A DNA stretch of 64,000 bases from Chloroflexota bacterium (lineage in GTDB: Bacteria; Chloroflexota; Anaerolineae; B4-G1; SLSP01). The stretch is from assembly GCA_019873645.1 (NCBI GenBank), contig JAIOAX010000022.1, forward strand, positions 20,599 to 84,598, read 5' to 3'. How positions within the stretch are numbered: the stretch's first letter is position 1; every line of letters starts with the position of its first letter. This document shows, in pieces, positions 6,841 through 64,000 of this stretch. The notes below the pieces were generated by a model. It saw nothing but the letters and a program-made list of their open reading frames with translations, searched no databases and was not told the DNA's origin. The translations under genes and the position numbers were made by a program.

Positions 6841-6858
6841 AAGACGTTAGAATAATAG

Positions 6859-8136: not shown

Positions 8137-8145
8137 CCGCTTTTT

Positions 8146-8330: not shown

Positions 8331-8362
8331 AAAGAAACGAACCGCGTAACTACGTCTAAAAA

Positions 8363-16131: not shown

Positions 16132-16134
16132 CTT

Positions 16135-25254: not shown

Positions 25255-26109
25255 ATGTTGCGGAATGTAAAGGTTTACAAACGTCCGACCGACATTGAGG
25301 AGGCCGTGGCGCTCGTGCAATCGAACCCCAATGCCGTCTACATCGGCGGCGGGGCATGGACGGTCGCGCAGGGCGATCCGCAGCTTGAAATGGTTGTGGA
25401 TTTGCAGGCTGCCGGCCTCAATTTCATTGACAGCTCCGTTGACGGCGTGCGTATCGGCGCCACCGTCACGTTGCAGGCCATCATAGATCATCCCGACGCC
25501 GGAACATTGGCGGATGGATTGCTGGCGCGGGCGGCGGGCTACACCCAGTCGCGCAATCTGCGTGAGCAGGGCACCCTTGGCGGCACGCTGATCGTCGCCG
25601 GTCCGGCCGATCCACTCACAACGGCGCTGCTGGTGCTCGATAGCGACATCCGCTATGCCGATCCGGTGGTGCATACCGCGCCGTTCGCCAGCTTTGTCGC
25701 CTACCGCGACCGCCTCATTAAAACGCGCGTGCTCATTACCGAAGTGCACGTCAAGCGTCCGCCCGCGCGCAGCGCCGCCACCTTCGAGGTGGTGGGACGC
25801 TCGCCCAAAGACAAGCCCATTGTCTGCGCGGCGGCTTATATCACCGTAGATGAGGGACTCCCGGCTGTGATCCGTCTCGCCGTCGGCGGCGCGGACGCGA
25901 AACCGGCCCGCCTCTACAAAACCGAACATTTGCTCAAAGGCCAGTTCCTCACGCGGGAGAAGGTCGCCAGCGCGCTGCCCGTTTCGCTGGCCGAGTTGAA
26001 CCCTGTTGGTGATTTCCGCGGCAGCGCCGAGTATCGTATGGAAATGGCAAAAGTGCTGTTGCAGCGTGCGATTTGGGGTGCATGGGAAAAAGGCCGGCGG
26101 GGTGCGTGA
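25255..26109 (+). CDS. FAD-binding subunit of the molybdopterin dehydrogenase family (CoxM/XdhB-like), orphan
   Basis: VKVYKRPTDIEEAVALV..AVYIGGGAW and the C-terminal GDFRGSAEYRMEMAKVLLQRA. No large or small subunit is adjacent. Confidence 0.65.
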   Translation: MLRNVKVYKRPTDIEEAVALVQSNPNAVYIGGGAWTVAQGDPQLEMVVDLQAAGLNFIDSSVDGVRIGATVTLQAIIDHPDAGTLADGLLARAAGYTQSRNLREQGTLGGTLIVAGPADPLTTALLVLDSDIRYADPVVHTAPFASFVAYRDRLIKTRVLITEVHVKRPPARSAATFEVVGRSPKDKPIVCAAAYITVDEGLPAVIRLAVGGADAKPARLYKTEHLLKGQFLTREKVASALPVSLAELNPVGDFRGSAEYRMEMAKVLLQRAIWGAWEKGRRGA

Positions 26110-26154
26110 ACGTTGGCCCGTTTGAACGTTCAAACGCTTGCTTAAGGAGAACTG

Positions 26155-31995: not shown

Positions 31996-32514
31996 ATGTC
32001 ACGTAATGTAGATATTAAGCGGATGACCTTAATTGCCCTTATGGGCGCGTTGATCTTTGTGCTGACGGCGTTGGTGCGCATTCCCGTCCCGGCGACGAAC
32101 GGCTATGTCCACCTGGGCGACGCCGCCATCACATTCACAGCTTATGCGTTCGGTCCCTGGGTGGCGGCTGTGGCCGGTGGGATCGGAACGGCTATGGCCG
32201 ATATGCTCGGCTACCCCCAATGGGCGCCATTTTCGTTGCTCATCCACGGCGCGCAGGGATTGGCGATGGGTTGGATTGTGCGGAAGCGCCTCAATACCCT
32301 GACGGTGGTGCTGTCGGTCGTCATCGGCGCGGGAGTGGTGGTTGCAGGATACTTCGCCGCCGGGACGTTCCTGGTCGGCGTGGCTGCGGCAGGATTGGAA
32401 TTGCTCCCCAATACCCTGCAAGCCTTGAGCGGCGGGCTGATCGGTGTTCCGCTGTATCTGGCCGTGCGGCGCGCTTATCCGCCGCTGGGAACTTATTCCA
32501 ACCGCATTGAGTAA
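31996..32514 (+). CDS. ECF transporter S (substrate-capture) component, substrate unknown
   Basis: Six-TM small protein with VRIPVPATNGYVHLGDAAI. ECF A and T genes follow. The start could be 31957. Confidence 0.7.
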   Translation: MSRNVDIKRMTLIALMGALIFVLTALVRIPVPATNGYVHLGDAAITFTAYAFGPWVAAVAGGIGTAMADMLGYPQWAPFSLLIHGAQGLAMGWIVRKRLNTLTVVLSVVIGAGVVVAGYFAAGTFLVGVAAAGLELLPNTLQALSGGLIGVPLYLAVRRAYPPLGTYSNRIE

Positions 32515-32519
32515 TGGGG

Positions 32520-32645
32520 GCGTTTCAACTTCGGGGCAAATCTTATTGTGGCCGGTCTCTGACCGCGCCACTGAAAATCAGGCGATGTGCAGGCGCGGTC
32601 TGGAGACCGGCCTGAGCATTGCCCCATCACCCTTTCCTGAAATGC
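32520..32645 (-). mobile_element. MITE-like hairpin element (GGCCGGTCTC core), full-length copy
   Basis: Arms GGCCGGTCTCTGACCGCGCC (32550-32569) and GGCGCGGTCTGGAGACCGGCC (32592-32612). Ends GCGTTTCAACT ... CCTGAAATGC. Starts 6 nt after the S-component stop. Confidence 0.7.
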
Positions 32646-32683
32646 ATCCTGAGTAACCGCAAAAAGCCAGCTAGCGAGTGTTT

Positions 32684-32710
32684 GTAGCGCGAGTTGATCA
32701 CTCGCGCTAC
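32684..32710 (+). terminator. Terminator-like hairpin between the S component and the ECF ATPase
   Basis: GTAGCGCGAGT / ACTCGCGCTAC form an 11-bp stem with a 5-nt loop, then AATTTTG. Confidence 0.4.
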
Positions 32711-36061: not shown

Positions 36062-36182
36062 ACGGATGAAACGGATTTTAAATTTACCCTTTATGATCTG
36101 TGACGTATTTCGGCAACTTTTACTACCATAACGTTCTAACCTGCCAACGTTCCAACGATTCTCCATTATAAGGAGGTTGACT

Positions 36183-42620: not shown

Positions 42621-42763
42621 GCATTTCAGGATGGAGGCGATTTATTAGCTACGGCAACTAGACGCTGCTCAGGCCGGTCTCCAGACCGCGCCTGCGCAGC
42701 GTCTGATCTCGCTGTGGCGCGGTCAGAGACCGGTCACAGCGGGACTTGCCCCCAAGTTGAAGC
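42621..42763 (+). mobile_element. MITE-like hairpin element (GGCCGGTCTC core), full-length copy
   Basis: GCATTTCAGGATGG ... GGCCGGTCTCCAGACCGCGCC ... GGCGCGGTCAGAGACCGG ... AAGTTGAAGC. A 14-nt restart of the 5' end lies at 42780-42793. Confidence 0.7.
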
Positions 42764-43893: not shown

Positions 43894-44439
43894 ATGCAAC
43901 GTCTACGTGCCCAGAAGCCGATTTATACCATCCTGATCGCCATCATCGTGGCGACTATACCCTGTTACTGCCTGGGTTTTGTGGCGCTGGCAATGCGTCC
44001 TGCGCCGCCGACAGCCACCCTGACTCCTACACCGACCATGACGCCGCGTCCGGGAGCAACCAATACCCCCTATCTGGTTGGCCCCGGTGAAGGCGGCGTC
44101 AACAAGACTTTGCCGCCTACGCCGACGCAGTGGTTCCCGCCCACACGCACGCCGACTCCCTTGCCCAGTGAGACACCCACCAGCACACCTACACCAACCC
44201 AGACGCCTACCGGCACGCCGCCGCCGACCGATACGCCCACTCCAACGGCAAGTGCTACACCTACTGATACACCGACGTTTACGGTCACACCGACGTTTGA
44301 GGTCCCTACCGATACGCCGACACCTACCAGTACGCCGACGGTTGAAATCCCTACCGACACCCCGACGCCGACGGCCACGCCGACGCTTGAGATGCCCACC
44401 GACACCCCGACGCCGACCGATACTCCCTCAACTCCCTGA
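43894..44439 (+). CDS. Membrane-anchored PT-repeat protein
   Basis: TM helix [25 protein letters not shown] followed by about 130 aa of TPTPT repeats. Confidence 0.5.
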
Positions 44440-44443
44440 AAGG

Positions 44444-45508
44444 ATGCCTGTGCCAACAACTTTTGAACTGCTCAAAACTTTCACCGAAGCTCCCGGCCCA
44501 TCCGGGCGCGAAAATACCGTCCGAGAGCGCATTGCCGAACGGTGGACGCCGTTGACCGATGCGTTGCGCACCGATGCGATGGGCAGCCTGATTGCGCTGC
44601 AACGCGGCTCGGCTTCGGCCCCGCGTCCTGCCGTCATGCTTGCCGCCCACATGGACGAAATCGGGCTGATCGTGACCGGCCTGGAAGGTGGCTTCCTGCG
44701 GGTTCACACCCTCGGCGGCATGGATCGGCGTGTGATCTTGGGACTGGATGTGATCGTCCACGGACGCCGTCCCCTGCCGGGGGTCATCGGCAGCCGTCCA
44801 CCCCATGTCCTCTCCGCCGAGGAACGTCGCAAACTCGTCCGCTGGGAAGAGGTCTTCGTGGATACCGGTCTGCCGGCCGAAGAACTCGCCGACCTGGTGA
44901 GTGTCGGCGACCATGTGACCGTTGACCGGGAACTGGTCGCGTTAAAAAATGACCTGGCCGCCGGCAAGGCGCTCGACAACCGCGCCTCGGTGACCGCCAT
45001 AACCCTGGCTCTGGAATGGCTACGTTCACGCCGGCATGCCTGGGACGTTTACGCTGTCGCCACCGTACAAGAAGAAGTCGGCCTCAAAGGCGCCATCACC
45101 AGCGCCTATAATCTTGCGCCGCAGATTGCCATCGCCCTGGATGTGACGTTCGGTAAGCAGTACGACGATGACCGGGCGGGAACTTTTGAGCTGGGCAAAG
45201 GGCCAACGGTCGCGCTGGGGCCGAATTTCCATCCGCAGGTGGTGGAACGTTTGAAGGAAGCTGCCAAAGCCGAAGAAATCCCCTATCAACTTGAACCGGT
45301 ATCCGGCAGCAGCGGCACCGACGCCTGGGGCATTCAGGTGGCGCGTGAGGGCATCCCCACAGGGTTGGTCGAAATCCCGTTACGTTACATGCACCAACCG
45401 GTTGAAACTGCCGCGCTCCGCGACATTGAGCGCGCTGCGCGGCTGCTGGCGAGCTTTGTGACCCGTCTGGACGCCGATTTCCGCCCTCAATGGGAGGACG
45501 AGGCATGA
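44444..45508 (+). CDS. M42-family (TET/FrvX-type) aminopeptidase, paralog 1
   Basis: [35 protein letters not shown] and [11 protein letters not shown]. The 44078 start runs through the PT-repeat gene in another frame, so I rejected it. Confidence 0.85.
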
Positions 45509-46557
45509 GCGACACGCTGATTTCCATCCTGCAAACCCTCGCGGATCTCACCGGCATTTCGGGAAACGAAGCCGCGATCCGCAGTGCCATCAAGGCGCGC
45601 GTCGCGTCCCATGTGGATAGCCTGCACGTGGACGCGCTCGGCAATCTCATCACCTGCAAACGCGGTACGGCGGAAAATCCGCTGCGGGTTCTGGTGACGG
45701 CGCACATGGACGAGGTCGGCTTGATGGTCGTCGGGCATACCGGCGAGGGTGGGCTGCGCGTCGAGGCCATCGGCAGCATCCCGGAACGTCTCTTGCCGGG
45801 GACGCAGGTGTGGATCGGCAAGGATCACCTTCCGGGCGTCATCGGGCTACAAGCCATCCACCGCGCCCACGATAACGACAATCAAAAAGCCGCGCCGCTT
45901 GAGAACCTCATCGTTGACATCGGCGCAAAGAACAAGGACGAAGCTCAGGAGGCCGCGCCCCTGGGAACGCCGCTCACCTTTGCGACCCGTTTCCGTGAAA
46001 TGGGCACTCTGGTCAGTGGTAAAGCCTTCGACGACCGCGCCGGGTGCGCGGTGCTGATCGCCCTGCTGCAAGGCGAACGGCTTCCCTGGGATGTGTACGG
46101 GGTTTTCACCGTGCAGGAGGAAGTGGGCCTGCGCGGCGCGCGGGTGGCGGCTTATGCTGTTGAGCCGCATGTCGCGTTTGCGCTCGAAGGCACGCTGGCT
46201 GACGATCTCCCCAAGGAAGACAAAGATGTCAGCCCGACGACCGAGTTGGGCAAGGGGCCGGCGATTACCGTGATGGATCGCTCGTACACTGCCGCGCCAC
46301 GCCTGCTCACACATGTGCTGAAGACGGCTCAGGCCGAAAGCATCCCTTATCAAATCAAACAACCGGGCATCAGCAGCACCGAAGCCGGCAGCATCTACGC
46401 CACACGCGGCGGCGTGCCGGCACTCACGATGGCTGTGCCCTGCCGCTACATCCATAGCCCTCGTGCTTTGTTGCATCCGGGCGATTTGGAAAACACGCTG
46501 CGGTTGGTGCGCGCCGCCATCGCCCGTCTCACGCCGGAGACGTTAGCGTTCTCTTAG
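45505..46557 (+). CDS. M42-family aminopeptidase, paralog 2
   Basis: ATGA overlap with paralog 1. Motifs LADLTGISGNE, TAHMDEVGLMV, KAFDDRAGC and [11 protein letters not shown]. Confidence 0.85.
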   Translation: MSDTLISILQTLADLTGISGNEAAIRSAIKARVASHVDSLHVDALGNLITCKRGTAENPLRVLVTAHMDEVGLMVVGHTGEGGLRVEAIGSIPERLLPGTQVWIGKDHLPGVIGLQAIHRAHDNDNQKAAPLENLIVDIGAKNKDEAQEAAPLGTPLTFATRFREMGTLVSGKAFDDRAGCAVLIALLQGERLPWDVYGVFTVQEEVGLRGARVAAYAVEPHVAFALEGTLADDLPKEDKDVSPTTELGKGPAITVMDRSYTAAPRLLTHVLKTAQAESIPYQIKQPGISSTEAGSIYATRGGVPALTMAVPCRYIHSPRALLHPGDLENTLRLVRAAIARLTPETLAFS

Positions 46558-46586: not shown

Positions 46587-47576
46587 TTGGACCTGAAACT
46601 TTTGGAACAACTCACCCAGACATTTGGCCCCTCAGGGTATGAGGATGAAATCCGCGCCGTGATTCGCACGGTTGTTGAACCGCTAGCCGATGAACTCCGT
46701 GTTGATCCGTTGGGAAGCCTAGTTGTCTATCGCAAAGGCACAGGCGAGGGCAAGAAAATCGCGCTTGCGGCGCACATGGACGAGATCGGCTTGATGGCGA
46801 CATACATCGAAGAGAAAGGCTATGTGCGCTTCACTTCCATCGGTGGCGTGCGACCGCTTAATTGTATCGGTGGGCGCGCGCGCTTCGCCAACGGCGTCAC
46901 CGGCGTCATCTATGCCGAGCGCCGTGATGATGCTTCAACTGTACCTGAGCTACGTCATCTTTACATTGACGTGGGGGCGACCGGGCGTGCCGATTGTCCG
47001 GTCGCAGTCGGCGATCCGGCGCAGTTTGTCGGACCGCTGACGCGCCAGGGGCAGCGGCTTGTCAGCAAAACACTGGATGACCGTATCGGCTGCTATGTTC
47101 TTATCGAAGTCCTGCGGCAGTTGGCTGCAACACCGCACGATCTCTATTTTGTCTTCAGCACCCAGGAAGAGATCGGGCTGGCCGGCGCGCGCACCACGGC
47201 TTTCCGCATTGATCCCGACATCGCTATCTCGGTGGACGTGACGGCGACCGGCGATACGCCCAAGGCGCTGCCGATGGCCGTCGAGCTGGGCAAGGGACCG
47301 GCGGTCAAGGTCAAAGATAGCGGCATGATTGCCCATCCCCTGGTGCGGGATATGCTGGTCGCGGCCGCGCAAAAAGCCGGCGTCCCTTACCAGATGGAAA
47401 TCCTGGTCGGCGGTTCCACGGACGCGGCGGCCATGCAGTTAGTGCGTTCCGGCGTCCCTAGCGGCTGTTTGAGCATTCCCTGTCGCTTCGTCCACAGCCC
47501 ATCGGAGATGGTGGATGAGGCCGATGTGGAGAACGCTATCGCCGTGCTGCTCACTGCACTGCGCACTACCGTATAG
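46587..47576 (+). CDS. M42-family aminopeptidase, paralog 3
   Basis: TTG start. Motifs [31 protein letters not shown] and STQEEIGLAGA. Confidence 0.8.
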   Translation: MDLKLLEQLTQTFGPSGYEDEIRAVIRTVVEPLADELRVDPLGSLVVYRKGTGEGKKIALAAHMDEIGLMATYIEEKGYVRFTSIGGVRPLNCIGGRARFANGVTGVIYAERRDDASTVPELRHLYIDVGATGRADCPVAVGDPAQFVGPLTRQGQRLVSKTLDDRIGCYVLIEVLRQLAATPHDLYFVFSTQEEIGLAGARTTAFRIDPDIAISVDVTATGDTPKALPMAVELGKGPAVKVKDSGMIAHPLVRDMLVAAAQKAGVPYQMEILVGGSTDAAAMQLVRSGVPSGCLSIPCRFVHSPSEMVDEADVENAIAVLLTALRTTV

Positions 47577-47647
47577 ATTCCTCGTTCGTAACGACTCGGC
47601 CACCCTTGAACCTGCCACCCTCCTGAAGGTCGCCCATCTCGGCGAGT

Positions 47648-47780
47648 GCGTTTCAACTGCGGAGTAAATCTTGCTGGCCGACCTCTGACTGCGCCACTGA
47701 AAATCAGGCGCGGTCTGGAGACCGGCCTGCGCATCGCCCAGTTGCCGCGTCTGATAAATCGCCCCGGTCCTGAAAGGCGC
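47648..47780 (-). mobile_element. MITE-like hairpin element (GGCCGGTCTC core), full-length copy
   Basis: GCGTTTCAACT ... GGCCGACCTCTGACTGCGCC ... GGCGCGGTCTGGAGACCGGCC ... CCTGAAAGGC. Confidence 0.7.
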
Positions 47781-47874
47781 CTATCCCGGCTCCCCACTTT
47801 CCTGTTTTTCGTTATTATGTTATCATATACCCATACGTTTCGGTCACTATTCTATATCGAAAGGGGAGAGAACA

Positions 47875-48390
47875 ATGAACCTGAAACAGCATTTACGGAT
47901 TTTGAGTGTCCTGATTGTGATTGCGGCGGTGTGGTTGACCGCCTGTGGCGGCGGGGCTCAGACTCCTACCGAGAGCAGTCCCGTCACCGAAAGCGGCAGC
48001 GCGGCCACGGAAGAGGCCCCCGCAGCCACGCAGGAAACAACGGCGGAAGAACCTGCTGAACCTGCTGCGCCGGCAGAACCGACTGCCACGCCGGAACCCA
48101 AAGACTTGTTCCCGGACATTCTCGTGGTGCATCCCGATGCCTTCAACTTTGAAGTTACCGTAGCAACCAGCACCTACGTTTATGTGGTGCCGATGATGGT
48201 TGCCGATACTGTGGCTTACCTGGAGGCCGAACTAAAAGCCATTGGATGGGAAGAACTGGGAAAACCCACGGTGATGGGGCATCTGGCGACGCTCAACCTG
48301 AAACGCGAGGGGTATCGCCTGACCGTCAGCATGCAAGATAACGAACGCACGCAAACAACGCGCGTACAGATGCTTCTTATGAAGCAGTAA
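47875..48390 (+). CDS. Lipoprotein, hypothetical
   Basis: Lipobox VWLTAC|GG with an acidic A/E/T-rich linker. Confidence 0.55.
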   Translation: MNLKQHLRILSVLIVIAAVWLTACGGGAQTPTESSPVTESGSAATEEAPAATQETTAEEPAEPAAPAEPTATPEPKDLFPDILVVHPDAFNFEVTVATSTYVYVVPMMVADTVAYLEAELKAIGWEELGKPTVMGHLATLNLKREGYRLTVSMQDNERTQTTRVQMLLMKQ

Positions 48391-48621
48391 CCTGCCGTAC
48401 TATTCCGAAAACGGCCAGCAGACATCATGAGCGACGCGCTCAACCCAGCATGAAAATGCATGTCAACGGATTAAGCGGATTTGAACGGATTAGCTTTCAA
48501 TTGTCGCATAAACTGCTTAATCCGCCAAGTATTTTCGGAATAGATTAAGCAGATTTATAGAGGATTTAAACGTTCCAACGTGCTAACTTGTCAACGTGTA
48601 AACGATTTTTAGGGAGGTTGA

Positions 48622-49159: not shown

Positions 49160-49336
49160 TTTGAGAAATCCCCCCGTTCTTCCCACACGCGGGGAGAGTG
49201 GGGACAGGGGGTGAGAGGGGCAAACCCAAAAAACTGCTCCCATCCTGAAATGCGCCCCCTTTACCTTTTATATTGTCTCTTTGTAAATCTGTGATACACT
49301 TTGTATATACAAAAAACACAAAGAGGAGTGCTGATA

Positions 49337-49591
49337 ATGTTGGCGACCGTAGTGAAATTAAGCGAGCGTAATCAGACGGTATTGCCAAAGATAGCCCGTG
49401 AAGCTTTAGGGGTGGAGCCGGGAGGACACATTCTGGTCATTGTTGATGGGCAAGATGTACGTTTGCTTCCAGAGCCGGAAAACTGGAGCGATTACATCTA
49501 TGGTTTGGGCAAGGCGATGTGGGAAAAACTTGGAGGGGGCGAGAATTTCCTGAGAGAGGAGCGCGCCGCGTGGCAAGCAACGCACAGTTAG
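49337..49591 (+). CDS. AbrB/MazE/SpoVT-type antitoxin
   Basis: MLATVVKLSERNQTVLPKIAREALGVEPGGHILV. SD GAGGAG lies upstream of ATG 49337. Confidence 0.65.
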   Translation: MLATVVKLSERNQTVLPKIAREALGVEPGGHILVIVDGQDVRLLPEPENWSDYIYGLGKAMWEKLGGGENFLREERAAWQATHS

Positions 49592-49596
49592 TAGCA

Positions 49597-49764
49597 ATGT
49601 CTGATCTGCGAGCACGTTACAAGCTGCGTGTCCCGGACGCAATTCACATAGGAACGGCACTGGTGTACGGAGCTACTGCCTTTATCACGAATGATTTAAA
49701 CCTGCGCTGCGTTACCGAGCTGGAAATTCTCGTGCTGACCGACTTCGCTTCCCCGATTACGTGA
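49597..49764 (+). pseudogene. PIN-domain toxin remnant (C-terminal about 55 aa only)
   Basis: MSDLRARYKLRVPDAIHIGTALVYGATAFITNDLNLRCV is a PIN C-terminal half. The N-terminal half is absent. Its 3' end overlaps the convergent GRE gene by 8 nt. Confidence 0.55.
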
Positions 49765-52201
49765 GTTCGTTGTGCGCCGTCCGCGCAATGATTTCATCCT
49801 GGAGCGCTTTGCTCAGATCGCAGAAGTAATCGCTGTAGCCGGCCACGCGCACGATGAGGTCGCGGTACTGCTCCGGGTGCGCCTGTGCGGCGCGCAGGGT
49901 GGCGGCGTCCACCACGTTGAATTGGATGTGATGCCCACCCATCTGGAAATAGGAGCGGATAAGGTGCACCAGCCCTTCCAATCCGGCGTCGTCCTGCAAC
50001 ACCGACGGCGTGAATTTTTGATTGAGCAGCGTCCCGCCCGTGCGGACGTGATCCATCTTGGCGACAGATTTGATGACGGCGGTTGGCCCACGCCGGTCTG
50101 CGCCCTGCACCGGCGAGATGCCTTCTGAAAGCGGCGTCCACGCCCGGCGTCCGTCGGCGGTTGCGCCGGTGACGCTGCCGAAATAGACATGGCACGTCGT
50201 CGGCAGCAGGTCAATGTGATAGGTCCCCCCGCGCGTGTTGGGACGCCCGTCAATGGCGTTGAAATATGCCTCGAAGACGCGCCGCATCACGCTATCGGCG
50301 TAATCGTCGTCGTTGCCGTAGCGGGGCGTGCGGTTGAGCAGCCGTTGGCGCAGGCGTTCATAGCCCACGAAGTCATTCGCCAGCGCGTCAAGCAGTTCGG
50401 CCATTGTGATCTGGGGGGCGGCCGGCTCGGTCAGAGACCGGCCAGAGCCAGATGGGGACATCTCGCTGGGGCCGGTCTCCAGACCGCGCCCCCCGCCGTC
50501 GAATACGTGGTACTTGAGCGCCGTCAGCGCGTCTGTGACCGAACCAAGCCCCACCCCCTGGATATAGGACGTGTTGTAGCGCGCGCCGCCATCGTGGTAA
50601 TCTTTACCTTTGGCGATGCAGTCGCTGATGAGCAGGGAAAGAAAAGGCGCGGGCATGTAGCGGGCATAGAGCCGTTCGATCACGGCGTTACCGCGGATTT
50701 TAACATCCACGAAGTAACGCAGTTGCGTCTCGAACGCAGCAAATAGTTCGTCGAAAGTCGTGAATGTGCGCGGAGCGCCGGTGCGCGGGCCGAGTTGTTT
50801 GCCGGTGCGCGGGTCCACGCCGTCGTGCAGCGTGATTTCGAGCACCTTGGGCAGATTAAAGTAGCCCGTTAGGTTGTAGTTCTCCTTGCCGAACGCGCCG
50901 GTCTCCACGCAGCCGCTCGTCCCGCCACAGCGTGCGTCTACCAGACTTTTGCCCACGCGCAACATCTCCTGGATGACGGTCTCCGTGTTGAAGACCGACG
51001 GTTGCCCGAAGCCGGTGCGGATGATGCGCGCCGCCCGCTTGATGAAGGCATCCGGGTTCTTTTGGCTGACCTGGATGGATGAGCTGGGCTGCAACAAGCG
51101 CATGGCTTCGATGACATCCAGGATGAGATACGTGACCTCGTTGACGCCGTCCGTGCCGTCCGGGCGCACGCCGCCGAGGTTGATCTGCGCAAAGTCGGTG
51201 TAGGTGCCGCTTTCCGCCGCCGTCACGCCGACTTTGGGCGGCGCGGGCTGATTGTTGAACTTGATCCAGAAACACTGCAGCAGTTCCTCGGCCTGCTCGC
51301 GGGTGAGCGTGCCCTCGGCGATCCCCCGGCGGTAGAACGGCTCAAGGTGCTGGTCGAGTTTGCCGGGGTTGAAGGAATCCCAGGGGTTCAGCTCCAGCGT
51401 CACGCCCAGGTGGACGAACCAGTAGTATTGCAGCGCCTCCCAGAAATCACGAGGGGCGTGCGCCGGAACGTGGGTGCAGACTGTGGCGATGTGCTCCAGT
51501 TCACGCTTGCGCTGTGGATCGGCCTCCTGTACCGCCAGTGCGCGCGCTTCCTCCGCATGACGTTCGGCGAAGCGGATGAGCGCATCCGCTGTGATCGCCA
51601 TCGCCTTGAGTTCTTCCTGTTTAGCATAGGCGTCGGGGTCGTTGAAAAAATCCAGCGCATCGAGGCTGGCTTGAATCTCGGCCTTGAAGTCGAGCATCCC
51701 CTTGTGGTAGATTTTGTCATCCAGCACGGTATGGCCCGGCGAACGTTGCTCCATAAATTCGGTGAAAATACCTGCTTCGTAGGCGGCTTTCCATTCCGGC
51801 GTCATTTCCTGAAAGATCAACTCGCGCATTGTCCGCCCCTGCCAGAAGGGGATGATGGTTTCGGCGTAGACCCGGCGCGTGTCCGGGCTGACGGCGAAGG
51901 GGATTTTCTCCCGCGAATTCAAGATATCCAGGTCGGCCAGACTATGACAGCACAGCTCGGGATACGTCGGCGTGGCTTTGGGGGCGGGGCCTTTCTCGCC
52001 GACGATGAGTTCGCCCGGGTGGATGCAAATGGCTTTGTGTTCCAGCAGGTATTGGAACGCCAGCGCGCGCTGCACCGGCGTGGACATCAAGTCGGTGTGG
52101 GTTTTGTAGAATTCCGTCATCAATTCTGCCCGCTCGCTGGAAAGCGTGGGGACGGCGTCGAGGCTCTGTTGGCGTAAGTGTGCCACTCTAAAGGAAATCA
52201 A
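49757..52201 (-). CDS. Glycyl radical enzyme, PFL2/dehydratase-lyase class
   Basis: C-terminal glycyl motif RVAGYSDYF. Active-site GCVE (Cys-x-Glu, as in eliminating GREs, not the PFL Cys-Cys). Also TADGRRAWTPLSEGISP. 814 aa. Confidence 0.9.
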   Translation of the reverse strand: MISFRVAHLRQQSLDAVPTLSSERAELMTEFYKTHTDLMSTPVQRALAFQYLLEHKAICIHPGELIVGEKGPAPKATPTYPELCCHSLADLDILNSREKIPFAVSPDTRRVYAETIIPFWQGRTMRELIFQEMTPEWKAAYEAGIFTEFMEQRSPGHTVLDDKIYHKGMLDFKAEIQASLDALDFFNDPDAYAKQEELKAMAITADALIRFAERHAEEARALAVQEADPQRKRELEHIATVCTHVPAHAPRDFWEALQYYWFVHLGVTLELNPWDSFNPGKLDQHLEPFYRRGIAEGTLTREQAEELLQCFWIKFNNQPAPPKVGVTAAESGTYTDFAQINLGGVRPDGTDGVNEVTYLILDVIEAMRLLQPSSSIQVSQKNPDAFIKRAARIIRTGFGQPSVFNTETVIQEMLRVGKSLVDARCGGTSGCVETGAFGKENYNLTGYFNLPKVLEITLHDGVDPRTGKQLGPRTGAPRTFTTFDELFAAFETQLRYFVDVKIRGNAVIERLYARYMPAPFLSLLISDCIAKGKDYHDGGARYNTSYIQGVGLGSVTDALTALKYHVFDGGGRGLETGPSEMSPSGSGRSLTEPAAPQITMAELLDALANDFVGYERLRQRLLNRTPRYGNDDDYADSVMRRVFEAYFNAIDGRPNTRGGTYHIDLLPTTCHVYFGSVTGATADGRRAWTPLSEGISPVQGADRRGPTAVIKSVAKMDHVRTGGTLLNQKFTPSVLQDDAGLEGLVHLIRSYFQMGGHHIQFNVVDAATLRAAQAHPEQYRDLIVRVAGYSDYFCDLSKALQDEIIARTAHNELT
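50418..50492. mobile_element. Core of the GGCCGGTCTC hairpin element inserted in-frame in the GRE gene
   Basis: GGCCGGCTCGGTCAGAGACCGGCC ... GGCCGGTCTCCAGACCGCGCC. On the minus strand it is translated as GGRGLETGPSEMSPSGSGRSLTEPAAP. Confidence 0.75.
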
Positions 52202-52239: not shown

Positions 52240-52644
52240 TCATCCTGTTATAAATGTTTTCAAGGATATGGCAATCGCAGGAAATTGATTAAGAATTTGC
52301 TTGTCTACTGTAACAAGCGGTACCCCCAAATCTTGCGCCAGAGCAACAAATTCACAGTCGTAAGCAGAACAAGTACTGTGCGCAACCAGTTTCAAGACCG
52401 ATACTGAGGCAACGGTATACTCCCGACCACGCAACAACATCAAGGCTTCATCCATAATCAAACAGGCGTCGTTTAGGGATAACCTACCCTGTCGCATGTA
52501 GAGCGCCAGTACATTCCGCAACTCACTGCGCCACAAATACGGCGCGGCCCAGTGTGAATCCTTGAGCAACACTTCTTGAACCTGCATGGAATGAGGGCTG
52601 CTCAAATACAGGTAGCCGATGATATTGGTGTCAACGACAATCAT
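52240..52644 (-). CDS. vapC: PIN-domain toxin
   Basis: MIVVDTNIIGYL N-terminus and the acidic residues of the PIN fold. 4-nt overlap with the antitoxin. Confidence 0.85.
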   Translation of the reverse strand: MIVVDTNIIGYLYLSSPHSMQVQEVLLKDSHWAAPYLWRSELRNVLALYMRQGRLSLNDACLIMDEALMLLRGREYTVASVSVLKLVAHSTCSAYDCEFVALAQDLGVPLVTVDKQILNQFPAIAISLKTFITG

Positions 52645-52889
52645 GCCCGGCCTGCTGTTTTTGCCGCATTAAAGTCCTCATCGCTGATCGGATAAGCCGA
52701 TGTTTTTTCGCGCAAGACTTGCGCCCTCGCCAATGTCATTTCGAGATCCATCGGTTGACCGCCCAGCGCTTGCTCAATGCAGACGATGATTTCACTGTTG
52801 ATACTGCGACGATGCAATTGCGCCGCTTGTTTCAATTGCACGTACAGTGCATCTGGTATGTTTTTTACAGTCACAGTTGTCATGCTCAT
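52641..52889 (-). CDS. vapB: RHH (FitA/VapB-like) antitoxin
   Basis: TVTVKNIPDALYVQLKQAAQLHRRSINSEI is an RHH N-terminus. Confidence 0.8.
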   Translation of the reverse strand: MSMTTVTVKNIPDALYVQLKQAAQLHRRSINSEIIVCIEQALGGQPMDLEMTLARAQVLREKTSAYPISDEDFNAAKTAGRA

Positions 52890-54548: not shown

Positions 54549-54629
54549 AGATGCGCTCCTTTTTGTGAAGTCGTTGGAACGCTGGAACGTTTGAACGTTC
54601 AAGCATTCCAACGTTTGTATACTACTCCA

Positions 54630-55153: not shown

Positions 55154-57430
55154 ATGGCAGATGAGCCTAACTTCCTCGATTTTGAAATTCACATCGCTGC
55201 GTGCAGGGATGACCGTTACCCGGGACATATTCGCCTGGGTGATGGCCAGGACTTCAACGGCGACTTATCTGCCAACTTGTTCCCTTGGACGCCCACCGGC
55301 AATCTGACCACCGACGGTCGGCGCCTTTTCGCCGCGCTCTTCACCGATCCACCATTGCGCCGCGCCTGGGATATGGCGTGCGGCAAGTCGTCACACCGCC
55401 GCATCCGCCTCTGGCTGGACGCGGACGCCCCCGAACTCCACACGCTCCCCTGGGAACTGCTCCACGACGGCCACACCTTCCTCGCTGCGGATGCCGCTAT
55501 GCCCTTCTCACGCTACCTGCCGAGCGACGCGCCGTGGGGCGGCCTTGTCGCCGAGCAGCCTATCCGCATCCTGGCGGTGATTTCCAACCCCGCCGATCTT
55601 GCCCGACCGCCATACAACCTCGCCCCTCTCGATGTGACCGCCGAGCAGAAGTTGTTGACCGATGCCCTGGGTAATCTCGTTCCTGCACACTTCCACCTGG
55701 AATTTCTGGAAGCCCCCGTGACGCTCGAATGCCTGGAACGCGCGCTGGCGTCCGGCCCTCGCGTCCTGCACTTTGTAGGACACGGTACGTTCAATGTCTC
55801 CAGACAGCAGGCTGCACTCTATCTGCAAGATGCCGCCGGTAATACACAGATCGTAACCGACGCCCAATTGTGCGATATGCTCCGTCGCCAGGCAAAGCTA
55901 CCTGGCCTGATCTTCCTGGCGGCGTGCCAGAGCGCGGAACGTTCCGAGATGGATGCTTTTGCGGGACTCGCGCCCAAACTGGTACAGACGGGCATCCCGG
56001 CGGTGGTAGCGATGCAGGACGCAGTTGCTATGGCTGCGACACAAAAACTGACGCCGGTATTTTATGAAGAACTGGCGCAACACGGCACGGTAGACCGTGC
56101 CCTCAACGCCGCGCGGAGCCTGCTGCTGACCGGCCAATCGCCGGATGCCGCAACGCCGGTGCTTCTGATGCGGCTGAAGGATGGCAAGTTGTGGGAACCC
56201 TTGTGGACGAAGACCAACCCCTATCGCGGCCTGGCGGCTTTCACCGAGGACGACGCAAAGTTTTTCTTCGGGCGCGATCAATTGATTGCAACGTTACTGG
56301 CCCATTTACGCAGCGACTCGCGCTTCCTGGTCGTCGTCGGCGCATCTGGCAGCGGCAAATCCTCGGTCGTGCAAGCTGGATTGGTCCCGGCCTTGCGCAA
56401 AGGCGCTCTATTCGGTAGTCAGGATTGGTCTATCGTCACATTCCGCCCAGGCAATGATCCGTATCCTTCAGTAGACCTGTCAGGTTTTCTGAAACCTGAC
56501 AGGTCTGAGAAACATTCGGTGATCTTGGTTGATCAGTTTGAGGAACTGTTTGCCTTGTGTTCCGAAACGGTACAAAAGCGATTCCTGGATGATCTGCTGG
56601 CGCTCATTGACAGCCCCGCCCCGGTGACGGTGATCCTGACCGTGCGGGCGGATTTCTACGAATATCTGTTGCACCATGCGCTAAGCGAGCGCATCCAGAA
56701 AGCGCAGGTCAACGTGCTGCCGATGAAGCCGGAGGAGCTGCGCGCGGCGATTGAAGAGCCAGCGCGAAAGGTGGGCCTGCGGTTTGAGGCCGGCCTGGTG
56801 GAGACCATCCTTCAAGATGCCAGCGCCAGTGCAAATGCCTTGCCGCTGCTTCAATCAGCGTTGACGCAATTGTGGTACAAGCAAGTGCAAGGTGTGCTAA
56901 CCTATGCCGCCTACAGAGCCATTGGCGGGGTGACGGGTGCGATTAGCCTATGGGCAGATAACACTTACAGCTACCTCAGCGCCCAGGAGAAACTTCTCGC
57001 GCGGCGCGTCTTGACGCGCCTGGTTCACTATGGCGAGGAGGGCGCCGCTGATACACGCCAGCGGCAGGCCCAGGCTGACCTGGTAACAGAACCGGGCGAA
57101 CAGGATACTCTGCGCGGAGTGGTGCGAAAGCTGACGGACGCCCGGCTGGTGGTCACGGGCGAAGGCGAAACCATCGAAATTATCCACGATGCATTGTTGC
57201 GCGAGTGGGGTCAACTGAAACAGTGGGTCGCCGAACAGCGTGAGTTTTACCTGTGGCGGCAACGCTTGAATGTCCAGTTGCAGACGTGGAAAGCACAACA
57301 AGAGGATGAAGGCGCGCTCCTGCGCGGCGCGCTGCTGGCCGAGGCGGAACGCTGGCTGCAGGCAAAGCCAGAGGAATTGAATGAGGTAGAGGAAGGCTAT
57401 ATTGCGCGCAGCCTCGCGCTCCGGCAGTAG
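55154..57430 (+). CDS. CHAT (caspase-like protease) domain fused to a STAND-type P-loop NTPase
   Basis: CHAT His (LHFVGHG) and Cys (FLAACQS). Walker A GASGSGKSS and Walker B VILVDQFEELF. Ends at an in-frame TAG. Confidence 0.8.
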   Translation: MADEPNFLDFEIHIAACRDDRYPGHIRLGDGQDFNGDLSANLFPWTPTGNLTTDGRRLFAALFTDPPLRRAWDMACGKSSHRRIRLWLDADAPELHTLPWELLHDGHTFLAADAAMPFSRYLPSDAPWGGLVAEQPIRILAVISNPADLARPPYNLAPLDVTAEQKLLTDALGNLVPAHFHLEFLEAPVTLECLERALASGPRVLHFVGHGTFNVSRQQAALYLQDAAGNTQIVTDAQLCDMLRRQAKLPGLIFLAACQSAERSEMDAFAGLAPKLVQTGIPAVVAMQDAVAMAATQKLTPVFYEELAQHGTVDRALNAARSLLLTGQSPDAATPVLLMRLKDGKLWEPLWTKTNPYRGLAAFTEDDAKFFFGRDQLIATLLAHLRSDSRFLVVVGASGSGKSSVVQAGLVPALRKGALFGSQDWSIVTFRPGNDPYPSVDLSGFLKPDRSEKHSVILVDQFEELFALCSETVQKRFLDDLLALIDSPAPVTVILTVRADFYEYLLHHALSERIQKAQVNVLPMKPEELRAAIEEPARKVGLRFEAGLVETILQDASASANALPLLQSALTQLWYKQVQGVLTYAAYRAIGGVTGAISLWADNTYSYLSAQEKLLARRVLTRLVHYGEEGAADTRQRQAQADLVTEPGEQDTLRGVVRKLTDARLVVTGEGETIEIIHDALLREWGQLKQWVAEQREFYLWRQRLNVQLQTWKAQQEDEGALLRGALLAEAERWLQAKPEELNEVEEGYIARSLALRQ

Positions 57431-57439
57431 GAACGCGAC

Positions 57440-58219
57440 ATGCGTGAGGCGCAGCAGCGACGCGAACTGGAACAGGCGCAGGCGTTGGCGCGCTCTGAGA
57501 TACGCCGCGCTAAAATTTTACGGTTTGGATTGGGTATATTAACCGTCTTTTTGTTCATAGCAATAGGCGCGGCCTGGCTTGCGATGCGGCAAACTGACCG
57601 GGCTGAACAGCAAGCCCGAATTGCGCTAGCACGCCAACTCGCCGCCCAGGGACAGGCTGAGTTTGCAAATAACCCCTTGCTGGGAGTACGGCTGGCGTTG
57701 GAAGGGTTAGCGTTAGCATCGCCAGAAGACGTAAATTTCCGAAAGGAACTTGTGAAGCAAACCGGTGAATTGGCGCAATCCGGACGTCTGCTCAAATTGG
57801 GTGAAGATGTAGAAGAAACACACCTCAGTCCAGATGGCTCTGTCTTTGTGCTAGTGCGCGCAGATGCACCCAGCGAATTACGCCGCACTGCCGATGGTTC
57901 ACTCATCGTTCAGCTCACCGCTAAAGTAGACTCTATATACTTTGACAAGAGCCTATATACGCGCTACTTTGTGATACGATATAAAGATACATACGGTGAA
58001 TTACGGCGTACTGTTGATGGTTCAATCATTGCGACACTCAAAGACGAGGTCTATTCTGCGTCTTTCAGTTCCGATCCCAATGCGACCTACTTCGCAGTGT
58101 ACTACTTTAATTCTTCAAGTGAATTACGGCGTACTGCGGATGGCCTGGTTATACCACTTACAGATCAAGTCCATGAAGTTTTTTTAACCCTAATCCAAGT
58201 GCAATCTCCTTTGTGGTGA
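57440..58219 (+). CDS. TM helix plus the first 3 propeller-type repeats; probably the continuation of 55154-57430
   Basis: Same frame as the upstream ORF, separated only by TAG plus 3 codons. TM helix LRFGLGILTVFLFIAIGAAWLAM. Repeats ELRRTxDGS. Confidence 0.6.
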   Translation: MREAQQRRELEQAQALARSEIRRAKILRFGLGILTVFLFIAIGAAWLAMRQTDRAEQQARIALARQLAAQGQAEFANNPLLGVRLALEGLALASPEDVNFRKELVKQTGELAQSGRLLKLGEDVEETHLSPDGSVFVLVRADAPSELRRTADGSLIVQLTAKVDSIYFDKSLYTRYFVIRYKDTYGELRRTVDGSIIATLKDEVYSASFSSDPNATYFAVYYFNSSSELRRTADGLVIPLTDQVHEVFLTLIQVQSPLW

Positions 58220-59412
58220 GTTATCGGGATGCTCCTGGCGAGCTGCGCCGTATCACTGACGACACGGTGATCGTACTTCGAGATAAAGTCTATGAAGTTC
58301 TCTTTAGTCCTGATTTGAATGCAACCGTCTTTTGGGTGAGTTACCGTAATCAAATCGAAAGTGAATTGCGCCGCACATCTGATGGCTCAATCATTGAGAT
58401 ACTTACGGGTATAGTTACCACACCTACGTTCTTTAGTTCTGATTCTAATGCAACTTACTTGGTGACGAGTTACCTTAACGCACCAAGTGAACTTCGGCGT
58501 ACCTCGGATGGTTCGGTTATCGCAAAACTCTCTGGTGGGGTTATGTCTGGTGGAGATTTCAGTCCTGACCCAAACGCAGCTTATTTGCTGGTTAGATATA
58601 ATAGTAACACACTAGCGGAACTGCGCCGTACTATTGATGGCTCAACGATTTTAACACTCACAGCCCAAATATATTATACCGCCTTTAGTCCAGACCCACA
58701 TGCAACATACCTGGCCGTGACCCATAATTTCGGCACTGACCTGCTCTACTGTGCCAATGGATTACTTGTTACAACGCTCACCGACTATGTTCCCCAAGGT
58801 GGTATCTTTTTCAGTCCTGGTCCAACAGCCGCTTATTTTGCTGTTATGTATGGAGATATGCCAAGTGAACTGCGTAACACGATAGATGCGTCGGTTATCG
58901 TGACGTTTTCAGGCCGGCTATCCCATAACGGGGTAATTTTTAGACCCACTCCCAATACGACTCACTTTGTAGTGGGCTACGACAATGCACAAGTAGAGTT
59001 GCGCCGCACCAATGATGGGAAAATTGTCGAGACACTCACAGGCAAGATTTCTATTTATGATAATATGTTTTTCAGTCCCGACTCAAACGCCGCCTACTTT
59101 ATGGTGCCTTATGCAGACGGACATAGCGAAGTATGGCATACCACTGATGGTTATCGCTTGGTTGACCTATCTATGGGTAGAAAAGGGCTTGCTTTTACGC
59201 CAGACGCAAAACGGCTTCTCGTCTGGTATACCAATGGTCAGGCATACCTCCTCGACCTCGATTGGCTGACCGCCATGAGAGGTAATCCCGCCGCACTCTC
59301 GCCAGAAGAACTAACCCGCATCATCTGTGACGGCCCAATGGCTTCCGGCATGTTTGACGAAAGTACGCTTGCACAGTATTTGGACGGCCGCGAACCGCAG
59401 GCGTGCCGGTGA
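58183..59412 (+). CDS. Eight or nine further PD40/WD40-like repeats (-1 frame continuation of 57440-58219)
   Basis: The roughly 42-aa repeat ELRRTxDGSxI..L....FSPDxNAxYFxV continues seamlessly if the frame shifts -1 in the T7 run 58179-58185. The track ORF begins at GTG 58213. Confidence 0.6.
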   Translation, partial: FNPNPSAISFVVSYRDAPGELRRITDDTVIVLRDKVYEVLFSPDLNATVFWVSYRNQIESELRRTSDGSIIEILTGIVTTPTFFSSDSNATYLVTSYLNAPSELRRTSDGSVIAKLSGGVMSGGDFSPDPNAAYLLVRYNSNTLAELRRTIDGSTILTLTAQIYYTAFSPDPHATYLAVTHNFGTDLLYCANGLLVTTLTDYVPQGGIFFSPGPTAAYFAVMYGDMPSELRNTIDASVIVTFSGRLSHNGVIFRPTPNTTHFVVGYDNAQVELRRTNDGKIVETLTGKISIYDNMFFSPDSNAAYFMVPYADGHSEVWHTTDGYRLVDLSMGRKGLAFTPDAKRLLVWYTNGQAYLLDLDWLTAMRGNPAALSPEELTRIICDGPMASGMFDESTLAQYLDGREPQACR

Positions 59413-61881: not shown

Positions 61882-61976
61882 GCATTTCAGGATGGGGGCG
61901 ATTTATCAACTACGGCTACTGGACGCTGCTCAGGCCGGTCTCCAGACCGCGCCTGCGCAGCGATTGATCCCGCAGT
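61882..61976 (+). mobile_element. MITE-like hairpin element, 3'-truncated copy
   Basis: GCATTTCAGGATGGGGGCGATTTATCAACTACGGCTACTGGACGCTGCTCAGGCCGGTCTCCAGACCGCGCCTGCGCAGCG... is nearly identical to 42621-42700. The second arm is missing. Confidence 0.7.
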
Positions 61977-64000
61977 GTAAAAATGCGGTTTCCTGGGCGA
62001 TGGCGTTTTCCAGGAGTTCGAGGAGCGGACCGGTGGGCGCGGGGAGGTGGTAATCGGTGTCCGGCGGGACGGCGTGTTGCAACGCTTCGAGGAGAGCAGC
62101 CGCAAGATGGTCGGCGGCGTCGCGGTGGGGCAGGTCGAGCGCGCGTTCCCAGGCCTGGGCCAGGGCGTGGGTGCCGGGAACCGGTGCGCCGAGGACGTCG
62201 GCCAGGTGCGCGTAGACGCGCAGGGCCGCCGTGATGACAGCCTGCTCAGGGGGCGTCCGTTGCGCCGGTGAGGTGGCAGGCAGGGGCAACGCCGCGGCAG
62301 GGACGTCCACAGCGGGGATGATGCCCTGGCGCGCCAGACGGCGGAGCAAGGCGTCAAGCTGCGCGGCATCCACCCGCACAGCGCGTGGGGAGAAGGTCTC
62401 GCGCGTCAGTTCGCGGAGGCCGCGCTGGCGCATCAAGGTCTGGAGGAGCGCGGGATCACGGGTTTCGAGGATGACGACTTGCCGCACCTGCACCTGATTC
62501 AACGCGGCCGCCCAGCGGTACAACGTCGCCACAACCTGCGCCGGGAGAGGACCGGCAGCGGCTTCGAGGAGCGCGAGCAGGCCGGCCAGGGTTTCGCCTT
62601 GCTGCCACGCGGCCAGCACATTCGCGGCGGTGAGTTCGTAAGTATCCGGGGTGAGAGGGTGCGGCGGGGCATAGCGTTCGAGGCGCAGGCGCAGCGCCAA
62701 CGTCAAGCCGGGGGCGCCTGCCGGCGGCTGGGCGACGACGCGCAGCCACAGGCGCGGTTCAGCGTCTTCTGCCGCCGATTCCGCGCGGACAATCAGGCCG
62801 GGCAACGGACCCTCGGCAGACCGCGGGACGTCCACCTGTCCCCACAATGCAGCGCCAGCAGGCGTGAGGAGCACGCCGGCTTCCGTCAACTGCACCATGC
62901 CAAACCATGCCAGCGGGCCGGTTAGCAGCGTTTCCAACGCGGCTAACTGCGTGCCACGATATTCGGCCTGCGCGTCCGGGTCGAGGGCGGCCCAACTTTG
63001 ATAGGCAGCCACGGGACGGAATAGCTCCGGCGCGCGTTCTTGCAGCGTCTCCCATAAGCGCGACAGGGTTACGGGCGCGCCGGTGAGCGTCGTCTGGAGC
63101 GCGGCGCACACCTGCGCAAAGCGCGCGGGGGGATCATCTTCGGCAGCCAACGGCAGGCGATACCGCTTCCACAATGCGGCGTTTTCGGCATCCGGCGCGC
63201 GCCACGCTTTCCAGAGGGTTTGCCAGCGCGTGAATTCAGGCATATCCAGCCATGCGAGCGCGGCAGGGGTAGGTTTGAGCCGGTCGCCGATCACCCCCAC
63301 CAGCCCGGCGCGTTCCGCCAGATAGTGCAGGAAAGCCAGGTAGGGCCAATGGTGCTCGCTGCGCGCGGGGACAGCGGGCGCAGCAGTCTTGATCCACACC
63401 GCCAGGGCACGCAACGCCGAGAACGGCAACCAACGCCCGTGCAGAGGCCGCACATCAACGCGATGGAGAAAACTCAGCCAGGTAAAGAGGTCAGCCAGGA
63501 GCGGGAGTGAGGGAGAGAGAGGAAGAGAGGGGGAAAGAGCGGCAGGCTGAGAAGCATTGAGAAAGGCGGTGAGGGGGGCCTGATATTCCTGGGGCAGCAC
63601 GATGGCCGGTTGAGGACGGTCGAGCGTGCCCCGATCCAGAGGGAAAATAAGCGCGCGATAGAACAACGCTTCGGTGGGAGAAACTGGCGCTTCCCAGGGC
63701 GCCGCCGGGCTATCGGCGCGCCAGGGGCGATAAGGGCGCAGTTCGCCAAAGCGATAGACGAAGTCACCGCGCGCGATCTGTCCGCCGGCCTCCAAGAGTG
63801 CCCGCAGCGCAGTTTGGAGTTCAGGCGTCAACCCGGTGCAGATGGTGGCCAGGCGCGCTGGCGAGACCGCCAGTTGCGCCAACGCTTCGACAGCGGCGGC
63901 TTTGGGGCGGGACGTATCGAACGGCCAACCGTTGGCGCGCGCGAGCGCCGCGAGCACCCGACGGTTTTGCGCCGCCAGGCACGCGCGTACATTCAGCCAG
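61930..64000 (-). CDS. Large Ala/Leu/Pro-rich hypothetical protein, partial (N-terminus beyond the window); possibly helicase-associated-domain-like
   Basis: The frame stays open to base 64000. The last 14 codons and the stop are encoded by the MITE copy. No catalytic motif recognised. Confidence 0.5.
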   Translation of the reverse strand, partial: WLNVRACLAAQNRRVLAALARANGWPFDTSRPKAAAVEALAQLAVSPARLATICTGLTPELQTALRALLEAGGQIARGDFVYRFGELRPYRPWRADSPAAPWEAPVSPTEALFYRALIFPLDRGTLDRPQPAIVLPQEYQAPLTAFLNASQPAALSPSLPLSPSLPLLADLFTWLSFLHRVDVRPLHGRWLPFSALRALAVWIKTAAPAVPARSEHHWPYLAFLHYLAERAGLVGVIGDRLKPTPAALAWLDMPEFTRWQTLWKAWRAPDAENAALWKRYRLPLAAEDDPPARFAQVCAALQTTLTGAPVTLSRLWETLQERAPELFRPVAAYQSWAALDPDAQAEYRGTQLAALETLLTGPLAWFGMVQLTEAGVLLTPAGAALWGQVDVPRSAEGPLPGLIVRAESAAEDAEPRLWLRVVAQPPAGAPGLTLALRLRLERYAPPHPLTPDTYELTAANVLAAWQQGETLAGLLALLEAAAGPLPAQVVATLYRWAAALNQVQVRQVVILETRDPALLQTLMRQRGLRELTRETFSPRAVRVDAAQLDALLRRLARQGIIPAVDVPAAALPLPATSPAQRTPPEQAVITAALRVYAHLADVLGAPVPGTHALAQAWERALDLPHRDAADHLAAALLEALQHAVPPDTDYHLPAPTGPLLELLENAIAQETAFLHCGINRCAGAVWRPA

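Follow-up and report, generated by a model that had tools for sequence, protein, structure and literature searches.

The 64,000-nt stretch of a Chloroflexota contig analysed here (JAIOAX010000022.1, positions 20,599 to 84,598; referred to as the window) carries on its minus strand an open reading frame (ORF) of 814 amino acids (49757-52201) that encodes a glycyl radical enzyme (GRE) of the trans-4-hydroxy-L-proline dehydratase (HypD) type, and within this gene lies an 81-nt imperfect palindrome (50417-50497, minus strand) that keeps the reading frame. Fold calculations and ortholog comparison delimit the palindrome as an insert of 27 codons between D568 and P596-Q597, translated as GGGRGLETGPSEMSPSGSGRSLTEPAA in the peptide context ...KYHVFDGGGRGLETGPSEMSPSGSGRSLTEPAAPQITMAELL... 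A first-pass annotation, made by a model from the letters alone, had noticed two hairpin arms inside the ORF and read the same minus-strand peptide. Sequence, ORF and translation were confirmed, and the hairpin is real, with limits (50418-50492) that proved slightly narrow. The evidence below identifies the element, with good probability, as a pair of inverted repetitive extragenic palindromic (REP) units, known as a REPIN, that has been inherited within a working enzyme gene.

The closest solved relative of the GRE is HypD of C. difficile (6vxc; E = 0, 1071 bits, compared with 542 bits for glycerol dehydratase), to which it is ~60% identical over the full length, and both the PFL-like and the Gly_radical Pfam domains were found in the protein. 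The catalytic and substrate-binding residues of HypD, His160, Asp278, Ser334, Asp339, Phe340, Cys434, Glu436, Tyr450, Thr645 and Gly765 (PMC7077986), are all conserved, as H157, D275, S331, D336, F337, C431, E433, Y447, T668 and G788; they include the Cys loop GCVE (CXE motif, C431-V432-E433) and the Gly loop (RVAGYS, with G788). These positions are invariant or nearly so across 30 orthologs. The earlier label of a PFL2-class GRE is refined to HypD-like by the 6vxc match and the conserved residues. Outside the insert, pairwise dN/dS is 0.07-0.11, insert-bearing pairs included; such values and the intact catalytic residues show, as far as sequence comparison can, a functional gene under strong purifying selection, and the option of a cryptic pseudogene, which the first-pass annotation had left standing, is rejected.

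The insert occupies a turn that is otherwise constant in length. The alignment to HypD is interrupted over query residues 570-598, a stretch represented by three residues in HypD; in the window GRE, 27 additional residues follow the counterpart of HypD Asp571. Nearly all superfamily matches likewise divide into two aligned stretches at residue ~568. In 49 of 49 diverse GRE representatives (33-91% identity), the turn from VF(D/E) to the next helix comprises four residues without any indel, which agrees with the earlier expectation that only a few residues separate the two halves. Most orthologs have 788-790 amino acids and read KYHVFD-xx-TLTMxELL without an insert; the ortholog check proposed earlier thus turned up insert-free proteins, one of them (P0005, 788 aa) 88% identical to the window protein. 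About 27 residues, close to the ~25 first estimated, are element-derived, given that the arms match a dispersed repeat exactly and that 788-aa orthologs lack the segment.

The palindrome is built from two units in inverted orientation, separated by 26 nt. Unit A with its head, GCTGG followed by GGCCGGTCTCCAGACCGCGCC, lies at 50465-50490 (plus strand); its 21-mer (50470-50490) is the exact master sequence of the family. The inverted unit A2, GGCTCGGTCAGAGACCGGCC (50424-50443) followed by AGAGC, spans 50424-50448 (plus strand), and between the two lies a variable spacer (50449-50464, minus strand) that encodes roughly EMSPSG. Each 21-nt unit, GGC.CGGTC-TCCA-GACCG.CGCC, is itself an imperfect palindrome that folds on itself, and two inverted units together form the larger hairpin. 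On the coding strand, the RNA hairpin reaches -64.3 kcal/mol (z = -4.9), a value that none of 200 shuffles attained, and the corresponding DNA fold -35.7 kcal/mol (z = -5.1). Across fold calculations, the hairpin reached -62 to -64 kcal/mol. The flanks TTCGAC and CCCCAG contain no direct repeat, i.e. no target-site duplication, and a scan of the window against Rfam at gathering thresholds returned a single tRNA and no match for the hairpins.

As the first-pass annotation had stated, the insert preserves the frame and introduces no stop, and the same is true of all insert alleles (81, 78, 72-75 and 120 nt, the nested one included). An AlphaFold2 model based on 30 close orthologs predicts coil with pLDDT <50 (predicted local confidence) for residues 568-599, with helices 552-567 and 600-608 on either side. 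Judged only from this coil prediction and the helix-turn-helix context, the loop would be exposed at the surface, and it is probably disordered. A predicted tryptic peptide of the insert-bearing GRE is GLETGPSEMSPSGSGR.

The same repeat is dispersed through the window. The 16-mer GGCCGGTCTCCAGACC occurs five times where 0.04 occurrences are expected, and the window holds five exact copies of unit A and 4-5 of unit A2. Apart from the GRE insert there are five loci, four of them intergenic. One A..A2 copy lies between genes for an ECF riboflavin S-component and an ECF ATPase (32550-32612, minus strand) and is a young insertion specific to its lineage; another forms the core of a ~165-nt composite palindrome (42672-42735, plus strand); a third has a partly decayed A2 unit with three mismatches (47676-47727, minus strand); and a single A2-type unit sits just downstream of ORF 18435-19433 (19444-19463, minus strand). 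The fifth locus is a single unit A (61933-61953, plus strand) over the 3' end of ORF 61930-63957, where it codes for the C-terminal GAVWRPA and contributes, through its GCTCA head, the TGA stop. That ORF has 675 amino acids and a weak, below-threshold Pfam match to Helicase_C_3. The shadow ORFs 32444-32656 and 47646-48059, from which an element origin of the insert had been argued earlier, do both translate to RGLETG peptides.

In the intergenic copies the units stand in the order A..A2, as a REP pair at the core of ~165-nt composites, whereas the GRE copy has A2..A, an order also present inside arrays of other genomes. We considered a permuted arm order as the sign of a circular or excised form and rejected it, since alternating unit orientation in clusters is the simpler account. 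The copy in the ECF operon is missing at four of four orthologous loci (L129-L132; 80-88% protein identity), so the family has been mobile recently, unlike the old GRE copy. With all four loci empty, the ECF site yielded no orthologous intergenic REPIN for a comparison of conservation. Just upstream of the ECF ATPase gene, a GTAG-headed palindrome, GTAGCGCGAGTTGATCACTCGCGCTAC (32684-32710), occurs once in the window and at the same position in three of the four orthologous loci; it could represent a regulatory hairpin specific to this locus, or else a third type of REP.

Beyond the window, a genome scan placed the exact 21-mer at more than 80 loci, mostly in Chloroflexota metagenome-assembled genomes (Anaerolineae, Ardenticatenaceae, Thermoflexus, Leptofilum), where it takes part in hairpins whose spacers differ, stands alone or is repeated in arrays. 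Matches outside the phylum (Brevundimonas, Hyphomicrobiaceae, Acidobacteriota, Actinomycetes) each consist of one unit within coding sequence and probably reflect chance in GC-rich genomes or binning errors. At one locus (L071), type I units stand on both sides of a 189-aa ORF (2732-3301), and a homologue in L072 (3397-3942) is accompanied by variant units. With 84.6 and 86.6 bits, both ORFs exceed the cutoff (80) of the NCBIfam equivalog model NF047646, 'REP-associated tyrosine transposase' (RAYT), and both contain HUH and Y..NP motifs; neither had a match in Pfam. The unit structure, the flanking of RAYT genes in other genomes and the absence of a target-site duplication therefore identify the element as a REPIN of a RAYT-associated REP family. 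The term 'MITE core' (miniature inverted-repeat transposable element) used in the first-pass annotation fits the larger ~165-nt intergenic copies with the REP pair at their core, but a classical MITE with terminal inverted repeats and target-site duplication is rejected, as there is no such duplication and the associated enzyme is of the Y1/HUH type.

At the GRE turn, this element is one of several alleles. Type I is found in the window, L046 and L125, and in L085, where a type II unit sits inside the type I spacer. A second type (...LAVDYNPPFLAALDCDPAQAG...) occupies the turn in L081, L089, L102, L113 and L118. Short remnants remain in P0007 (GRSPTDP; 16 of 21 nt of the 3' arm kept), P0008 and P0027, and the site is empty in P0005, P0006, P0009 and all more distant orthologs. 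The type II insert is also a hairpin (-43 kcal/mol) and a complete copy of a second dispersed family, found at 39 metagenome loci, including 104-nt tandem arrays. In six loci, type II arrays flank a Y1_Tnp/NF047646 (RAYT) ORF (L100 3134-3694, L104 6208-6768, L117 2960-3523, L098, L119 and L120). Units of both types stand side by side in L103 and, in L046, upstream of the GRE. Homology of the two insert types is rejected: they have only the host flanks in common, and each matches its own dispersed family. A homologue search restricted to the 111 aa surrounding the insert yielded short, unrelated fragments; it added no new allele that carries an insert. As a separate observation, a conserved radical-SAM gene (254-259 aa) adjoins the type II RAYT in L100, L104 and L098.

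We compared the arms at the nucleotide level in four type I DNA sequences (window, L046, L125 and L085), whose genes show a synonymous difference of 0.34-0.49 (dS ~0.5-0.8). The longest invariant runs in the gene are the two arms, with 27 nt around unit A and 21 nt around unit A2, whereas outside the insert the maximum is 20 nt and the 95th percentile 11 nt. Within the 81 nt, none of 48 arm positions varies, compared with 22 of 33 positions in spacer and outer stem (Fisher p = 5e-12) and 27.6% gene-wide. Gene-wide, 44.6% of third-codon positions are invariant; in the arms it is 16 of 16, so the constraint acts on DNA or RNA and not on the peptide. Of the two units in the type II insert, one (26 nt) varies at a single site across five lineages and the other is decaying; conservation thus attaches to the REP units and not strictly to the long hairpin. 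We infer that the most likely cause is selection that maintains the units as recognition elements, in DNA or RNA, for a RAYT or a host factor. A bolder version, which we offer as tentative, would have the units in the ORF selected as nucleic-acid elements (through a domesticated RAYT, a host factor or a role in the mRNA), with the DNA doubling as code for a loop, and the site acting as a recombination or insertion hotspot that swaps REP families at a turn of otherwise invariant length.

The history of the site can be followed in part. Insert-bearing alleles all fall in one subclade, with the P0007 remnant basal. The four type I alleles have identical junctions and spacers of evident homology (L046 and L125 agree at 16 of 20 positions), and all four carry a coding-strand GAGCC variant where the window's other copies read GCGCC; type II alleles likewise have junctions and tails in common. 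Each insert type therefore looks like a single event, and the homologous spacers with identical junctions make independent re-insertion unlikely. Insert type, however, does not track the gene tree. One clade (A) mixes the type I genes of L046 and L125 with the type II genes of L102 and L113 at 100% bootstrap, and L125 joins type II genes to the exclusion of L046 with 98% support upstream of the insert and 75% downstream. The type II gene of L081 groups with the window gene at 97-100% upstream but at only 13-32% downstream, where it tends to clade A (46-73%). Judged from these alignments, recombination with a breakpoint at or near the insert would be the simplest explanation of the interleaved types; excision and replacement may also be their source.

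Taken together, we assign a probability of about 0.8 to the reading that the insert is a REPIN made of two inverted, self-palindromic REP units of ~21 nt, that it belongs to a RAYT-associated family widespread in Chloroflexota, and that it is translated within a working HypD-type GRE. The REPIN inserted once, without target duplication, into the short turn between two GRE helices; having a length that is a multiple of three and no stop in frame, it would be translated as a Gly/Ser/Pro/Thr-rich loop of 27 residues that the enzyme tolerates. The insertion is old: at least four diverged lineages have inherited it, and a basal lineage retains half of the element in decayed form. At the same turn, and also nested in type I, the second REP family (type II) has inserted as well. 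Recombination would have passed alleles from one lineage to another, and some lineages would have lost them. The REP units stay invariant, most likely as recognition elements, while spacer and outer stem drift almost neutrally.

Several observations weigh against this reading. Both the translation of the loop and the activity of the enzyme are deduced from sequence, and the AlphaFold2 model is poor (mean pLDDT 56). No GRE-activating enzyme was found in the 64-kb window (tblastn with an approximate E. coli PflA query) or within 6 kb of seven ortholog loci; the activase may be encoded elsewhere in the genome. The window contains no RAYT gene, and the association of units with RAYTs was seen only in other genomes that carry these units. 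The GTAG/CGTC tag of described REP superfamilies is not present either, the heads being GCTSN (GCTCA, GCTGG, GCTGT, GCTCG); this tag is a feature of those superfamilies and not of REPs generally. The comparison of arm constraint, finally, covers no more than the four type I sequences.

It also counts against our reading that the arms could owe their identity to overwriting, by short-patch gene conversion from hundreds of genomic copies or by repeated RAYT excision and re-insertion. The family is abundant and, as the copy at 32550-32612 missing from orthologous loci indicates, recently mobile; alleles without an insert are intermixed in the tree with those of types I and II; and the 21-mer is identical across distant Chloroflexota, as would hold for a 'master sequence'. 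Conversion, however, would randomise or erase the GAGCC variant that sets all four GRE copies apart from the window's others, and spacers that are homologous and diverge roughly like synonymous sites, between identical junctions, speak against independent re-insertions. We regard overwriting as possible, though not probable.

Another explanation has the hairpin co-opted for a function in cis in the GRE gene, or as a protein-binding DNA site, with the peptide as a by-product. It draws on the constraint on nucleotides instead of the peptide, on the very stable hairpin (-62 to -64 kcal/mol) and its persistence over dS ~0.5-0.8 at a turn that is length-invariant elsewhere in the superfamily, and on P0007, which has lost the partner arm and whose remaining arm has decayed. 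Yet the close relatives P0005, P0006 and P0009 do without the hairpin and others have an unrelated REP family in its place; type II alleles conserve just one of their two units, and three lineages have a partly broken hairpin; and conservation of the units is family-wide. A cis function is in our view unlikely.

Far less probable is that the gene is a pseudogene, the insert an assembly artefact, or the segment removed after transcription or translation in the manner of an intron or intein. The missing activase nearby and the proneness of repeats to assembly error might suggest so, but a dN/dS of ~0.1 with intact catalytic residues opposes the first; four independent assemblies from different samples carry the same insert, which excludes the misassembly that the first-pass annotation had named as a risk; and removal would not require every allele to be in frame without a stop, quite apart from the lack of intein motifs in the insert and of an Rfam match and from a length of 81 nt, which could not accommodate an intein or a group I/II intron. 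That the loop is ancestral to the GRE clade and resembles the repeat by chance, or that the repeat originated from the GRE gene, is refuted to the point of being negligible: several basal lineages do have short extra segments at the site, but the exact 21-nt match to a family dispersed over many Chloroflexota classes and flanking RAYT genes, the four-residue turn in 49 of 49 GREs, the empty alleles within the clade, and a second, unrelated REP family at the same site all contradict it.

With the REPIN reading preferred, the element invites comparison with known systems. REPINs consist of conserved REPs and a variable spacer and are described as almost exclusively extragenic (bioRxiv 10.1101/2021.07.10.451892). 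Like the REPIN-RAYT systems of Pseudomonas, E. coli and Neisseria, the window family has two inverted ~21-nt units, each with a short palindrome, conserved units beside a highly variable spacer, high copy numbers with clusters and singlets, units that in other genomes flank a single small HUH/Y1 gene passing the RAYT model, and no target-site duplication. Unlike them, the GRE copy lies in frame within an enzyme gene under purifying selection and has long been inherited; the host is a Chloroflexota bacterium, the GTAG/CGTC tag is missing, and the 21-mer is common to several classes of the phylum.

In-frame palindromic repeats are themselves of a known kind, as are occasional intragenic REPs. 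The Rickettsia palindromic elements (RPEs) lie in frame in functional protein genes and are translated as extra segments (PMC3733652, PMC10969869). As with RPEs, several unrelated host proteins are affected, and insertion appears compatible with host fold and function. The likeness is one of behaviour, i.e. in-frame insertion in functional genes; host phylum and unit size set the two apart. RPEs are ~100-150 nt long, largely decayed and have no known active transposase, whereas the units of the window family are RAYT-associated, recently mobile and strictly conserved, and at the GRE turn two REP families alternate at one site. GTAG/CGTC REPs occasionally lie wholly within ORFs or give stop codons to flanking ORFs (Di Nocera et al. 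2013, PMC3733652), the latter being paralleled by the unit at 61933; clusters of bacterial interspersed mosaic elements (BIMEs) in E. coli show the alternating unit orientation that would likewise explain the A2..A order of the GRE copy. Compared with both, the window unit differs in sequence, is untagged, and comes with an allelic series and a measured nucleotide constraint. Classical MITEs (Correia/NEMIS, RUP, ERIC) are also short, non-autonomous, hairpin-forming, dispersed and able to create in-frame fusions, but the window element has neither the terminal inverted repeats of DDE-type insertion sequences nor a target-site duplication, and its enzyme is of the Y1/HUH type.

The GRE is one of several hosts. 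Type II units lie in frame in an adenylation domain of a nonribosomal peptide synthetase (NRPS), an alpha2-macroglobulin (L094), a GH38 mannosidase (L123), a sulfatase (L116), a GmrSD nuclease (L111) and the C-terminus of a POR subunit (L105), and a type I unit lies in frame in a TMEM260-like protein (L077). In these six numbered loci, the units stand mostly between Pfam domains or at termini. The NRPS case comprises two closely related C-A-T modules, L101 (ORF 2-2935) and L121 (ORF 1-2538, minus strand), with type II sequence between the YGPTE and GRPIANTQVYILD motifs of the adenylation domain: L101 has one unit and L121 three tandem 27-nt units.

We found no report of in-frame palindromic repeats for Chloroflexota or glycyl radical enzymes. 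What appears new is a RAYT-associated REPIN inherited in an enzyme gene, the alternation of two REP families at a length-invariant turn, and invariant units next to a drifting spacer. Coding palindromes, known mainly from Rickettsia, would thereby extend to a RAYT-associated REP family in Chloroflexota, inside the mechanistically demanding HypD. The series of empty, type I, type II, nested and remnant alleles amounts to a natural experiment on the tolerance of a GRE at this turn, and it is informative about the gain, exchange and loss of sites by REP elements. The contrast between units and spacer offers unusually clean evidence that REPs are constrained as nucleic acid, a point relevant to the question whether REPIN-RAYT systems benefit their host or act selfishly.

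Around the GRE gene, neither an activase nor a P5C reductase gene was seen adjoining it, a further difference from C. difficile HypD. The radical-SAM ORF 13704-15044 is of the lysine-2,3-aminomutase type. Toxin-antitoxin genes bracket the GRE (49301-49764 and 52240-52889), with a PIN-domain gene and a FitA-like ribbon-helix-helix gene upstream and a MazE/AbrB-like gene and a truncated PIN-like ORF downstream. The synteny with GH127 and Peptidase_M55 genes seen in the orthologs L046, L125, L083 and L128 is disrupted at the window GRE.

Elsewhere in the window, an 8-nt motif (GGAACGTT / CAAACGTT) forms short tandem runs at six or more sites, with 14 register-shifted matches (16087-16142, 19691-19722, 26100-26139, 36129-36160, 48560-48607 and 54569-54616); these runs look like a further short repeat of dispersed type. 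The interval 5551-9667 holds three paralogous ORFs in tandem (~425-434 aa), the first two with 91% nucleotide identity over ~300 nt. Two tandem M42 glutamyl-aminopeptidase genes, both Pfam-confirmed (44078-45508 and 46587-47576), flank ORF 45490-46557, which has a repeat in common with them and is probably a third M42 paralog; the gene at 44078-45508 has a Thr/Pro-rich, repetitive N-terminal extension (repeats 44171-44427). In the region 55154-59412, a CHAT-nSTAND1 protein of 758 aa is followed by ORFs with coding repeats of 123-126-nt periodicity (57869-59112), possibly a repeat-domain sensor or effector partner.

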